Below the pieces are notes generated by a model. The model saw only the letters and a program-made list of their open reading frames with translations, was not told the origin of the DNA and made no database searches. The translations under genes and the position numbers were made by a program. From positions 35,216,001 through 35,280,000 of the forward strand of contig NW_026889779.1 in the NCBI RefSeq assembly GCF_033153115.1: a DNA stretch of 64,000 bases, in the 5' to 3' direction. Position 1 is the first letter of the stretch; each line of letters opens with the position of its first letter. This DNA comes from Saccostrea echinata. Lineage: Eukaryota. Below, one piece after another: positions 6,695 to 44,597 of this stretch.

Positions 6695-7315
6695 CTTCAA
6701 ACATTATAACAAAGTGCACTTCAAAAAAGACATCCTGATAAAAAAAAAATAATAATAATTATTATCACGAAAAGTTCATAATAAATTTAATAATTAATAA
6801 AAATTCATAACGAGTGCATTATGAAGACGTTGATCCTGTTCAAAACATTATTTACAATACTGAAATTACCAGATAATTGTCAATTAAAAGTCCCCAACTC
6901 TAGGCTGCTTGTCAACAAGAGAATTAGTTTTTGACTCCGTTATTCATTCAAGAAAATGTTGAAGTAATATTAGCATCACTCACCCATATACATGTACATA
7001 AATAAACAAAAATGTCATCTCAATGACACTACATGTACACATATATGATATATATGTATAAAACATATAAACAGATGATACTATAGCACATGAATTTCCT
7101 AATTGTCAGTCAAAGGCTGTGATTTTTTTCACATGACAGAACTTGATCATTAGCATGTTACTTGTAAGTTTTAAAGCAATCACATGTCAATTTTCTAATG
7201 TAACAATAATTACTTTAATACAAAATTATATTGAACACAACACATAAACATGAGATTGTGTTTCACGTGACACTGATATTGTAAATGCCAGCTATCATAC
7301 TCCATCATTATGAAA

Positions 7316-38624: not shown

Positions 38625-39502
38625 TATTATACCCCCGGATCGAAAGATCCGGGGGTTATATTGTTTTTGTCCTGTCTGTCTGTTTGTCTGTTTATCTGTT
38701 TGTCTGTCTGTCTGTTGTCAACTTTAACCTTGCCCATAACTTTTGATTGGTTGAAGCTATGACTTTCATATTTCACATGTGTATTCCTTGTGACAAGACC
38801 TTTCTTTGGAAACTATCATATTTTACCTTTTGACCTTGACCTTGGAGTTTGACCCACTTTAACAAAATTTTATGAGACTTTAACCTTGGCCATAACTTCT
38901 GAACAGTTGGTGCTTGGGGTTTCAAACTTCACATGTGTATTCTTTGTGGCAAGGCCTTCCTTTGGATACCAAAAACTTTGACCTTTTGACCTTAGAGTTT
39001 GACCTACTTGTGAAAAACTATAATCTTGGCCATAACTTTTGAACAGTTGGTGCTTAGAGTTTCAAACTTCACATGTGTATTTCTTATGACAAGACCTTCC
39101 TCTGGATATCAACCTCTTTGACCTTTTGACCTTGACCTAGGAGTTTGACCTACTTTTGAAAAACTTTAACCTTGGCCATAACTTTTGAACGGTTGATGCT
39201 AGGGCTTTCATACTTCACATATGTAATTCTTGTGACAAGACCTTTCTTTGGATACCAACTTTGACCCTTTGATCTTGACATTTTATTTACTTTTTAAAAA
39301 CTTTAACCTTTGCCATAACTTTTAGACAGTTGAAGCTAGGGCTTTCAAATTTCACAGGTATATTCCTCGTAACAAGACCTTTCTTTGGGTACCAACATTT
39401 TTCATCTTTTGGTCTGGATTTTGACTTGCATTTGAGAAACTTTACTTTAACCTTTGCCATAAGCTGCCATTCGGGGCATCATTATTTCACAAATACATCT
39501 TG

Positions 39503-40020: not shown

Positions 40021-42922
40021 ATGGCACAGTATATCCAGGTTAGTGACGAAGAGGGTGACGAGCCGATAGAAATTCCTAGTGAGGATGACGGTTCGTTGTT
40101 GCTCAGCACACTCGCCGCACAGTTTCCGGGGGCATGTGGAATGAAATACAGAAATCCAAGCACTGGAAATTTTCGTGGAATTAGACTATCAGAGGGAAGA
40201 CTGCATCCACCAGATGGAGTTTGGGGAAATTTTGTTTACATTGTTGTATTCCCCAAAGGTTTGTATTGAACAAGGAGTAATTTATATTGGCATTTTTATA
40301 TTTGTTCCTTATTCAATCAGTGAGTCATGCAAGAGATGATATCCAGCAACAAAGTACATTTTTTTTCTGTATATACATACACAGAAGTGACATCTCATGA
40401 AGTTCTTAACATGTTGGTTGCAGTTTAAAAAAAGGATGTAAAGATTGTAACTCTTACAAGACAGCTTGAATAGGTCCGGCACAATTTCTTGATTTAGCTA
40501 AATAGCTTGAATTAGTTATCATTATTTTTATTTATCATTATCATTTTACATTTTTCTTAACCATGCATTTTTTTTATCGTTATCATTTGACTTTTTTCTT
40601 AAATGTGCATTTTTTTTCAGCATGCTAAAAAAAAAAATCACATTTTGGTGCACTGAAAGTTTTCAGCTTTGAACTCTGAATGCATGAGAAAATCATTCAT
40701 CAAATTGCCAGGGCTCTACATTAACTTTTTTTCATACTTGTCCGTTTGGACAAGTGACCAAGACATTTACTTGTCCGAACTTCAACCTCACTTGATATTT
40801 TTCAATAAATAATTCTGTCAACTTGAAAACTATTACTTAAAATAAAGTCCATTTTATGCATGCTTGAGGGATTTGTGATTTTATTGATACATATGACAAA
40901 CACATAAGACAAAATTTTATCTAGACTTTCTGTCCTGACAGCAACATAAATGCTCACAAATGAAACTGTCAACATCAAACAGAATCCAAACTTGGTAAGG
41001 TCCATGCCTTTGCAGTGGTATGCAATTAGTGAACTTCAATCCTGATCAAGTGTGAACTCAATTACATAGTGATTAATATTGGGATTAAAGTTTGGCTTTT
41101 ATGTACTGCTTCAGTCTTTAACCTATTGTTAAACTTTTCACCAGTTGTTCTTTTTATTATTTAGAGGCTTCGTTACATAAAAAAGCACTTGTCCAATCGG
41201 ACAGGTGCCCAGCAATATTCACTTGTCTGTAAATTTTTTTCACTGGTGCCGGACAAGCAGACAAGAGTTAATGTTGAACCCTGATTGCGTCTCCTTTGAG
41301 AGACTTTGTACTCATTGACAAAGTTCTAGAAGTTTTAGGGAGTTATAAAGAATCTGTGACCACACAGTTACTTCTTGAATGAACTTGTATAACATATCAA
41401 CTTGCAGATAATGTGATGATAAAACGCAAAGGAGATGAGGCTGGTGAAAATTCAGTGGCAAAGAATAAATGTGTTGATAAACAGAGATGCAGTGATCTCA
41501 TTGTTCTTGGCTTACCTTGGAAAAGTAATGAAGATGATCTGCGCAGATACTTCTCTTCATTTGGAGAACTGCTTCTTGTACAAGTAAGTTAATTTATTAC
41601 AAAATCATATAAATTTAAAAAAAAAAAAAAAATGCCGGCTTTTGCTCTTTGAGCAATGAGCCTGACTAAAAAAATGTTTTGTTCTTGAAAAAAAATTTTC
41701 TACTTCAGATATTTTTGGTTTTATTAAGATTTGGTGTAATTATGATGAAGTTTTATCTTAAAAAGTATATTTTGTGTAATGGCTTGTTTTTTTAGGTGAA
41801 GAGAGATGTGAAGACAGGAGCATCAAAAGGGTTTGGCTTTATTCGATTTTTAGAGTATGATTCGCAAGTAAAGGTTTTGGCACAAAGACACATGATTGAT
41901 GGAAGATGGTGTGATGTAGCTATTCCAAATTCAAATGCAAGTATTTTCAGTGGAATAATTTGTTTTATACTAATTAATCAAATTTAGAGATCCGTTTCTC
42001 AGTTTTTAAACAATAAAAACATCAAAAATTAAAAGATATCATTTGACATGTCATTATACCATTCCTAGTATTGGCATTTTGCAAAGTCCAAAGACAGTGT
42101 TTTACTTTGATTGCTCATAGATACAGTTTTTTAAGTATGCATTGTGAAAGTAAAAATTCAAATAAAAATTTATTAATTCATTTTATTACATGTACAACTG
42201 TATATATTATTATATAATGCATAATGATGATAATTCATTCTTGGTTTTTTCCTTTCATACAGGAAGGTGCTGCAGAAATGGTTAGCAGAAAAGTTTTTGT
42301 AGCAAGATGCACTGAAGACATAACAGCTGATGACCTAAAAAGTTACTTTTGCAAATATGGGGAAGTGTCCGATGTTTTCATTCCCAAACCCTTCCGAGCA
42401 TTTGCTTTTGTTACTTTTGCAGATCACAGGGTTGCTCGATCTCTTTGTGGGGAAGACCATATTATCAAGGGTGCAAGTGTTCATGTCACCACAGCTGCTC
42501 CCAAAAACGCCGACAGAAATGATAACAGGGGCAGATTTGATCATGGAGGAAGTGGGAGGGGAGGGGGACATGGGGGGTGGAGCCAGCAAGGTAAACCAAT
42601 TGCTACTGTAGGTACAGTTCCACCTGTGCCTGACCCAAACATGGCTAATAGTATAGGCATGAATTTATTGAATTCAGCTGTGTTAGCAGCAGCCCAGGCT
42701 ATGTTACAAAGTCAAGGTCAGTTACCAGCACCCCAACCACAGCCAGTGGGTCAAGGTCATGGGGATCCTTTTGGTGTTCAAACCACAACTGCCAGACAGA
42801 CCCAGCAAACAGGGTTCTTTAGTACTCAGAACTCTGCAGGCTGGGGGACAGCTGACACCAACACATCCGCAGGCGGATATCCCAACTGGGGAGGAAACAG
42901 CCATCAGAGTGGTTGGAGTTAA
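40021..42922 (+). CDS. TARDBP: TAR DNA-binding protein 43 (TDP-43), 404 aa
   Basis: Exons 40021-40258, 41408-41583, 41796-41936 (GC donor), 42263-42922. N-terminal domain [36 protein letters not shown]1 ([26 protein letters not shown]), RRM2 ([27 protein letters not shown]), and a G/Q/N-rich tail with the helix [16 protein letters not shown]. Confidence 0.96.
40709..41283. mobile_element. hAT-like MITE in TARDBP intron 1
   Basis: TIRs CAGGGCTCTACATTAACT / AGTTAATGTTGAACCCTG, subterminal ACTTGTCC repeats, ATTGC on both flanks. Confidence 0.8.
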
Positions 42923-44177
42923 TGTATGGGAGGATACATTGTTTGGTGTGCGTCAGTGTGGTGTTGATTTTTTTACTATGCAGAGTGCTAAGCCTTGTGT
43001 TTATTAGGGCTGGAATGATATGGGAAGACAGACTTCTATGATCCATGCATCTACTGCTTGTAGTATATATCTGTTCCTATATTTTGATTGTATATCAAAA
43101 ATTACATGTATAGCCAAGTCAAATACTTAAGTTATGTTAAATTAATTCTTTTAATTCAAAGACAAAAAAAGTCCCGAACAAATATTTTTCCTCTCGTAAA
43201 AAAAATATCAAAGACTTTATTTTCTCTTTTTTTCTAGGAAATTACTTGGTAATATTGAAAAAAAAATCTAAGCTTTTATCAGTGTAAAGTTGAATTACTG
43301 AACTAAAAAGTATTTTAATGTGCAGAATGTAGCAGAATTTGCAGTCATTGTACCAGGATGTATATTGTTTCACATTTTACTTGTATCATCCCAGCCCTAG
43401 AGTTTAACCATTTATAAGGTCACTACAGCAGTTTCTAGAACTTTGCTTATTCTAAAATGATATTTATCCTTTTTGTTAATTTGCACCATAGGTTTAACAG
43501 TTTTTTTAACACACATAATTATATTGTCCATTCAGAGAAAGTTATTTACACAAACTGACATCTAAACTGTACCTTTTAATTAACACATTGCTCTATAGCA
43601 TATTAACTTATACATTTAAAGAGATTGTTTCACCTTCACTAAAGTGGTGCTTTCAGAGGAGAAATCAGTGCTAAGCACGACAACTTGTTTATCCTTTCAG
43701 AGTTTAAAAGTAATTCATAAGATTTTTAACATGGGAACTTGGTTCCAAGTTTGTTTTTTTTTTTTTGTGTTGCTTAAATATGATCAGAAATCTTAATATG
43801 TACATGTACATAAAATATTATGTGTGGATTTGCATAAATTGTTAATCAGTGTATCTACCTTCAGCATTCCCATTTGTTGTAAATTTTTACGAAAAGTAGC
43901 TTTCTATATTTTCCCTAGCAACCTACTACATGTAGCAGATGCCTAAAATTTTCTAAATTGTTTAAATTTCACCTTTATTTTTTTCTGATGCTGATATTGT
44001 ATTTACTTCTAAATAGATTTTTTGAGATTTGTATTTCAGTATGTAAAACTATTTAACACTGTGTGACCATTATGAAAAGTAATTGGATTATTGGTTGGAC
44101 TGAAATGAACAGAACTTGAAAGATGTAATCTAGACTGAAGTGTGTATTGAGAAAATTTGGAAAAAATTGAATTAATT

Positions 44178-44442
44178 GAATCATGAATGGAATGAACTGA
44201 ATCATGAGTGATCTGGAATGGACTGAATCATGAGTGATCTGGAATGGAATCATGAGTGATCTGGAATGGAATCATGAGTGATCTGGAACAGACTGAATCT
44301 TGAGTGATATGAAATAGAAACTTGAGCAATTTGGAACAGAAACATGAATGATCTGGAATATGAATCATGTGTGATCTGGAGCAGACTGAATCTTGAGTGA
44401 TCTAGAATGGATTCAGTGGTGTATGGATGCTCTGGAATGGAC
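44178..44442 (+). repeat. 22/26-bp minisatellite downstream of the TARDBP stop codon
   Basis: Roughly ten diverging copies of GAATCATGAGTGATCTGGAATG(GACT). Confidence 0.92.
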
Positions 44443-44583
44443 ACAGATGAAGTGTGATTTTGCTTTTATGTTGTATTGTGCAGAATGAATTAAAGGAGAG
44501 TGTATATATGGTGTGCAAAAGTGTTTTGAGTGTTTCTTTTTAGCATTGAAGTCTATGGTAATATCTGTGTTTTTATCTTTCAG

Positions 44584-44597
44584 GGGTACCTCCTTGA
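44584..44597 (+). other. Putative alternative terminal coding exon of TARDBP (…GVPP*)
   Basis: Acceptor TGTGTTTTTATCTTTCAG|G at 44583/44584. Joined to the donor CAAG|GTAAAC at 42590/42591 it reads G-V-P-P-TGA. Not supported by transcript data here. Confidence 0.45.

Follow-up and report, generated by a model that had tools for sequence, protein, structure and literature searches.

A conserved UG-rich block with a minisatellite core in the 3'UTR of an oyster TARDBP-like gene, a candidate TDP-43-family regulatory region

Autoregulation of TDP-43 is central to ALS/FTD and has been characterised mainly in mammals. In case of the human gene, pA1 is under inhibition by TDP-43, and it is the lengthened transcript that offers the intron-7 acceptor, as described in PMC4937342; the binding region is given as ~600 nt of non-canonical UG sequence (PMC3643599). 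A first-pass annotation of a TARDBP-like gene of the oyster Saccostrea echinata had pointed to a UG-rich minisatellite downstream of the coding region, which raises the question whether this array serves as a binding platform for the protein encoded by its own gene or by a sister paralog. A literature search, mainly outside subscription journals, retrieved no paper on how TARDBP is regulated in molluscs, nor one describing a minisatellite as TDP-43 autoregulatory region.

Host gene and transcripts

The window, i.e., the whole 64-kb stretch of DNA analysed, harbours a four-exon TARDBP-like gene on the + strand (40021-42922; Table 1), the exon ends of which were set by splice joints of transcript contigs. 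The joined 404-aa model is identical to P0123, labelled by its source as Saccostrea echinata TDP-43-like protein, and contains Pfam TDP-43_N and two RRMs; the array had been placed correctly on the sense strand of TARDBP. A second protein entry (P0121) differs from P0123 at residues 186-187, and this difference beside the GC-AG intron (41937-42262) suggests a nearby alternative splice site. RRM2 has four matches in the genome (window locus on C30, a duplicate on C54, and the paralogs L014 and L015). The C54 duplicate is collinear and 97-98 % identical across much of ~27 kb, and most likely represents the other haplotype of the window locus. Three TARDBP paralogs are recognised in the oyster (C30, C54, C42; L010-L013), L014 being of the canonical type and L015 another. 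Tandem repeats of 140 nt flank the gene in opposite orientation (38877-39411 and 47036-47716); they recur near L015 and belong to a common dispersed repeat family.

The RNA-binding surface of the RRMs is kept in the window protein, as judged from sequence comparison of aromatic and basic contacts: equivalents of F147, F149, R151, K145, K192, F194, F229, F231, D247, K263, G146 and V220 are retained (residue numbering through P0097). The gene falls into a paralog type of bivalves that is marked by A or T at vertebrate position 176 and by N at position 181; the window paralog itself has A, N, T, T and A at positions 176, 181, 258, 259 and 261. Since RNA binding of human TDP-43 is abolished by K181E and not by K181A according to PMC6885686, N181 need not disable binding. 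On account of the five changed positions, RNA specificity may differ from that of vertebrate TDP-43 (residues and background after PMC6934062 and PMC13343711). Changes of this paralog type at the RRM1-RRM2 linker and the RRM2 end are bivalve-wide and may alter RNA specificity.

Transcripts were assessed with eight runs (X1-X8) from three studies, which are not on record as RNA and the transcript origin of which was judged by splice joints. Their contigs join exons across introns with GT-AG or GC-AG ends, and most intron bins are empty; hence the contigs derive from spliced transcripts. RNA coverage of the array, which the first-pass annotation had left to be confirmed, is provided by such contigs in all three studies. 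In case of X1, one contig leads from the coding exon into the array (42576-44254) and the next one covers 44259-44846, with the three introns spliced out in the same runs. The contigs are unstranded, the sense being taken from the spliced gene; those of X1-X5 break inside the array (44254/44259), and bin depth across it (e.g., 354.9 in one X5 bin) was left out as a measure of copy number. A loose end at 44816 (X1-X4) finds no match in the window, lies inside a high-copy repeat and was treated as stemming from another locus. One X5 contig departs from the genome at AAG|GT (44659-44661) with 76 unaligned letters, possibly because the 3'UTR is spliced to a distal exon or because the allele is rearranged. 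Further downstream, ~810 nt of the window (44949-45760) are missing from the C54 copy; they contain several AATAAA and are covered by transcript contigs at lower depth.

Table 1 Features of the TARDBP-like gene and its 3'UTR (window coordinates)
Feature	Position	Strand	Basis or remark
Coding exon 1, N-terminal domain	40021..40258	+	Splice joint in 4/4 runs; model = P0123; Pfam TDP-43_N
Coding exon 2, RRM1 start	41408..41583	+	Joints of spliced contigs
Coding exon 3, RRM1 end, followed by GC-AG intron	41796..41936	+	Joint 41936->42263 with GC..AG ends in 8/8 runs
Last coding exon: RRM2, disordered tail with AAAQA helix region, stop	42263..42922	+	
Candidate CDS-internal donor in G-K-P codons	42588..42596	+	Consensus scan; no joint seen in the runs
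TG-rich island after stop, still alignable in related species	42923..43028	+	X6 contig aligns up to 43028; 16 TG/100 nt
Single-copy conserved UTR island	43653..43853	+	Aligned in X6 and X7; 2 genome matches = locus and duplicate
Non-repetitive TG-rich lead-in of conserved block	44084..44177	+	13.8 TG/100 nt; aligned in X6 and X8 save a 22-nt deletion at 44155
Minisatellite, unstructured, with UGAGUG, UGGAA and GAAUG; putative platform for TDP-43-family binding	44178..44440	+	TRF, unit split, folding, transcript contigs
Non-repetitive TG-rich tail, UGUA at 44472	44441..44488	+	
ATTAAA, candidate proximal poly(A) signal	44489..44494	+	Sole AATAAA/ATTAAA from stop codon to 45132
Inferred cleavage region (weak hint)	44515..44520	+	X4 (P1) contig stops at 44515, X8 (P2) at 44520
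GU/U-rich downstream element	44521..44545	+	Sequence
Pyrimidine tract and CAG, candidate acceptor	44561..44583	+	95 nt past poly(A) signal
Dispersed high-copy repeat, end point of most UTR contigs; outside the element	44794..44950	.	Summed depth in thousands, many loose ends

Anatomy, composition and genomic distribution of the array

The array is located in the 3'UTR, 1.26-1.52 kb past the stop codon of one of the three paralogs, on the sense strand. Previously described as about ten units of 22/26 nt at 44096..44535, it is a real tandem array of 11 units, but starts at ~44178, the preceding 44096-44177 belonging to the non-repetitive TG-rich lead-in. Splitting at the unit start yields 21, 26, 22, 22, 26, 22, 22, 23, 26, 22 and 31 nt, and TRF calls a period of 22 nt with 9.3 copies (44188-44409). 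The last unit ends ~143 nt before the acceptor at 44584, in agreement with the ~140 nt reported before.

TG density peaks here, at 52 per 300 nt, when both strands of the 64 kb are scanned in 300-nt windows, and amounts to 14-17 per 100 nt across 44084-44583 vs 6 in the mid-UTR. Among 40 random 10-kb genome stretches, the TG density of the array was matched in one, there by another minisatellite, and its GAATG count in none. With respect to the GAAUG/GUGAAUG motifs put forward by the first-pass annotation, GAATG occurs nine times in 44096-44535, albeit in only five of the nine full units, whereas GTGAATG is absent (TGAATG 2, TGTGTG 1). TGGAA (11 occurrences in the block, two of them as UGGAAUGGAA) and TGAGTG (7) are as characteristic. 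By an approximate version of our own of the hexamer classes of PMC8445024, built without the full published lists, the array contains 13 AA-type, 6 TGAGTG, 3 YA-type and 1 YG-type hexamers. Folding of the sense strand was no better than that of shuffled sequences (z = +0.38; 67 of 100 shuffles as good), and the block, like a TDP-43 autoregulatory binding region (TDPBR), is longer than 100 nt, single-stranded as judged by folding and equipped with dispersed UG-rich motifs.

Two other roles were considered and rejected: (i) a structured RNA, in view of this z-value and of an Rfam search of 42900-45300 that gave no hit at E <= 1, and (ii) a coding role, as stops are present in all three sense frames and just two stop-to-stop frames of 71-72 aa in antisense. 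An m6A platform was dropped as well; the 15 DRACH per 350 nt are a level reached by 2.3 % of window positions.

The unit is unique within the window, as claimed before. Genome-wide, the exact unit has at least 8 matches with one mismatch allowed and at least 10 with two, all of them at the C30 locus and its C54 duplicate, and none in viral contigs; the earlier expectation that it is no dispersed transposon repeat is therefore borne out. A DNA search did reveal one unrelated look-alike array: 27 copies of a 23-nt unit (C23:8447789-8448489; G000, L053) sharing 20 of 21 aligned bases. With its start in the terminal codons of a rhodopsin-type GPCR, this array lengthens the GPCR frame beyond S-G-H, and it is oriented opposite to the GPCR sense; S-G-H is the end of the frame in the adjacent GPCR paralog, where no array is present. 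Comparing the window UTR with 27 kb around the C23 array, the repeats alone align and the flanks are single-locus. Since the unit is not dispersed and mobile-element flanks are not shared, origin from a transposon family was rejected. The likeness fits both local origin with convergent sequence and a single transfer. Its occurrence at an unrelated GPCR means that such units can arise without TDP-43 selection. Minisatellites are common in general, with 15 rows (~11 arrays) in 400 kb, one of them at 0.154 TG per base vs 0.167 for the present array. On the GPCR sense strand, the C23 array repeats CAUUCCA, a putative miR-1-family site.

Processing signals and conservation

The order in the 3'UTR is array, ATTAAA, GU-rich element and AG acceptor; that the array directly precedes the first canonical poly(A) signal of this UTR, with an AG acceptor after it, is a new observation. 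The G+T fraction downstream of the signal at 44489 is 0.69, the top value of the 23 hexamer sites listed, and UGUA precedes the signal. In two of the eight runs (X4, X8), bin depths fit no cover past the contig stops at 44515 and 44520, respectively, 26-31 nt after the signal start (loose ends as listed; X8 with 6 unaligned letters), which is a weak hint of cleavage at 44515-44520; the other six runs read past 44520. The site at 44584, called an acceptor before, is acceptor-like in sequence (pyrimidines at 15 of 20 positions, which ranks it joint third of the 62 YAG sites in 42923-45300), but no splice joint to it is among the joints listed for the eight runs, and contigs of X1, X2, X3, X5, X6 and X7 read straight across it. 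As contigs drop rare isoforms, the missing joint is compatible with regulated splicing.

Runs X6-X8 stem from a related species with 92-94 % coding identity and about 0.23-0.37 differences per synonymous site (differences counted, without classification). Their UTR aligns only as islands (to 43028; 43653-43853; ~43975-44006; block from 44084/44103 to 44520-44652), 379 other letters taking the place of the 624 nt of 43029-43652. Block identity across species is ~94 % vs ~25 % synonymous divergence, a value to be read with the inflation of alignment identity by repeats. In case of the non-repetitive X7 contig (44424-44609), 8 substitutions and 3 gap letters amount to 11 of 186 (binomial P ~5e-8 at 20 % neutral divergence), and the X6 block shows ~10 differences in 161 (P ~8e-7 at the same divergence). 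Across the block, X6 is longer by 50 letters and X8 by 52, even with the 22-nt upstream deletion, implying about three more units in the related species. The block, non-repetitive flanks included, appears to be under constraint between species.

Between the two genome copies, 44084-44620 differs at 1 of 537 nt vs ~11-14 expected, the other non-coding nucleotides of the gene showing 78 differences in 3,018. Such low haplotype divergence is shared with 2 of 36 windows across the duplicate, and SNPs within the block are present in other individuals. The proposal that copy number tunes TDP-43 dosage is unsupported, because both genome copies have the same unit count. The proposal that repeat expansion built the region applies in part: the TG-rich block is enlarged by repeats, but not the whole region is repeat-built and the non-repetitive flanks are conserved as well. 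The UG-rich patch is probably older than the tandem duplication, which would have enlarged it.

The array is absent from the other two oyster paralogs, and homology of the block to their UTRs was rejected, since 160 and 52 of 200 shuffles, respectively, score as high. A 23-nt match of the lead-in to L015 scores above 100 of 100 shuffles, yet is one of 80 comparisons, and none of 20 loci aligns to 44420-44620. The canonical paralog L014 has an ATTAAA, an element of 0.75 G+T and an acceptor 98 nt on (7140-7238), a spacing close to that of the window gene, with 10.8 TG/100 nt upstream; it also has an earlier AATAAA. With thresholds set after L014 was seen, 800 kb of background contain 10 sites combining signal, element and acceptor, and none once TG density is added. 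The full combination was found at one of 20 other loci (L014), L030 having all but TG and most others being short transcripts; the genomic clam-type locus L026 is without this layout.

A metagenome scan yielded 33 TARDBP loci, none of them an oyster ortholog. After removal of 16 loci (redundant or without UTR) and addition of the two paralogs, 19 not fully independent loci were compared. Downstream of their stops, TGTG (365 vs 288) and TGAGTG (33 vs 17, in 12 of 19 loci; antisense 3) are above all 200 shuffles, the TGAGTG excess dropping to 19 vs 13.4 without the related loci L039 and L041. No such enrichment is apparent in oyster background DNA, which is the sole control and does not include non-TARDBP UTRs of the compared animals. 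Words of the form UG-NN-UG are likewise overrepresented past other invertebrate TARDBP genes, on their sense strand. In contrast, GAATG (73 vs 62.6 expected) and TGAATG (23 vs 28.9) are not enriched at the 19 loci; GAAUG was rejected as a conserved invertebrate feature and the weight placed on it by the first-pass annotation was too great.

Proposed function and alternative readings

We regard it as somewhat better than an even bet that the array and its flanks form a regulatory region of the TDP-43 family, one part of which arose by repeat expansion. With similarly restrained preference, the block is viewed as a putative landing pad with several sites for proteins of the TDP-43 family, through which use of the downstream poly(A) signal would be controlled. 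At low protein level, the transcript would be cut near 44517 and translated, by analogy to human TARDBP. At high level, TDP-43 (window paralog or canonical) would load on the block and suppress the site at 44489; read-through would then expose the acceptor at 44584 or a distal end, and its products may be retained, degraded or C-terminally truncated. Location and transcription of the array, its single-locus status, its conservation and the order of the elements are observed, and cleavage site, TDP-43 binding, suppression, splicing and feedback are steps we infer. According to PMC8445024, TDP-43 binds UGAAUG-type motifs and UGAAUG aligns with its crosslinks; AA-type regions are described there as independent of condensation for the most part, and the human region in the 3'UTR is placed in the condensation-dependent YA-type. 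Cooperativity of TDP-43 was demonstrated for pure GU repeats, other sequences being left open in PMC8523171.

As in the mammalian TARDBP region described in PMC3643599 and PMC4937342 (TDPBR, pA1, alternative intron 7), the oyster gene combines a long last exon with a several-hundred-nt block of dispersed non-canonical UG motifs, which is located upstream of the first poly(A) signal and then of a splice acceptor, signal and acceptor being candidates in case of the oyster. Unlike the mammalian region, about half of the oyster block is tandem repeat; its motifs are of AA/UGAGUG/UGGAA-type and fall outside the YA class to which PMC8445024 assigns the human [UG]n region, and three paralogs allow cross-regulation. 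Alternative intron 7 and feedback are known for mammals, whereas in the oyster the layout is known from sequence, with no joint to 44584 listed in the eight runs. Given the different motif class, and binding and feedback being predicted only, the block is not filed as a TDPBR member, but would be TDPBR-like by layout. It is likely a variant of the known autoregulatory layout with a repeat-built core. If so, its presence in a mollusc would push the origin of the switch far back or point to convergence, a minisatellite would have been recruited into the control loop of an RNA-binding protein, and this natural periodic platform of 22/26-nt units, the number of which varies between species, would offer a ready test of motif type, spacing and valency in TDP-43 feedback.

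One may argue that the main binder of this constrained 3'UTR element is a different protein (hnRNP A/B, FUS or a factor recognising purine-rich motifs), which would tune polyadenylation or stability with TDP-43 being incidental. UGGAA repeats are bound by TDP-43, by FUS and by hnRNP A2/B1 alike (PMC6985187), hnRNPA2 crosslinks to GGAA-type motifs according to PMC8445024, and the block holds 11 TGGAA with canonical UG repeats being nearly absent; furthermore, conservation and position at the poly(A) signal suit any regulator. The likeness to the pathogenic UGGAA expansion has its bounds, since the latter is kilobase-sized and intronic (PMC6985187), whereas the oyster copies of the motif are spread over longer units within a 3'UTR that is normal and conserved. 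This reading is considered unlikely, if worth keeping in sight: the host gene encodes TDP-43, the vertebrate orthologs of which autoregulate via such a block, TG enrichment extends to flanks free of GGAA, and the UG-NN-UG words recur on the sense strand at other invertebrate TARDBP genes.

Still less probable is a near-neutral minisatellite beside a conserved poly(A) site, with selection acting on the flanks only. Head-to-tail units of 22/26 nt with degenerate edges and species-variable unit number are indeed those of an ordinary minisatellite/VNTR, such arrays are as common in this genome as stated above and include the look-alike at an unrelated GPCR, and the paralogs manage without one. An ordinary VNTR would, however, hardly be expected to retain the same count and a single substitution between genome copies otherwise 2-3 % apart, nor a unit sequence conserved to ~94 % over ~25 % synonymous divergence. 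A cluster of microRNA target sites or a small-RNA decoy, to which near-identical 22-nt 3'UTR units bear some resemblance, is very improbable considering the Rfam result for 42900-45300 and non-repeat flanks conserved like the units.

Extending the preferred reading of a TDP-43-family regulatory region, one may speculate that a complete switch of the vertebrate kind (binding region, proximal poly(A) site under suppression, downstream acceptor and short isoform) operates in bivalves, either dating back to the bilaterian ancestor or re-evolved, the oyster repeat expansion forming a periodic platform possibly read by a sister paralog; this extension is tentative and rather doubtful. Splicing of TARDBP from a CDS donor to a site past the stop is reported for jawed vertebrates only, Ciona, Branchiostoma and Petromyzon being negative in the same survey (bioRxiv 10.64898/2026.10.06.756961); no mollusc appears in the part of this survey covered here. 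Like such exitron-type genes, the oyster gene has a candidate donor ~30 residues past RRM2 and a pyrimidine-rich post-stop acceptor, but unlike them the junction was not found in the eight runs. Joining this donor to 44584 is predicted to yield a 298-aa protein without the helix region; oyster proteins with predicted short tails were not among the 23 C-termini or sequences inspected; of the oyster cluster, 40 of 68 members were covered.

The donor-like sequence overlaps G-K-P codons (42588-42599) that are kept in oyster, scallop and mussel proteins of the paralog type, GKP being present in 32 of 45 (redundant) proteins of this type vs 3 of 171 others. Clams retain K-P only, so that a role of G-K-P in the protein is just as likely as one as donor. 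An oyster-type 120-aa protein from a metagenome assembly (P0151) has lost the helix region by internal deletion and represents a pseudogene or a splice product.
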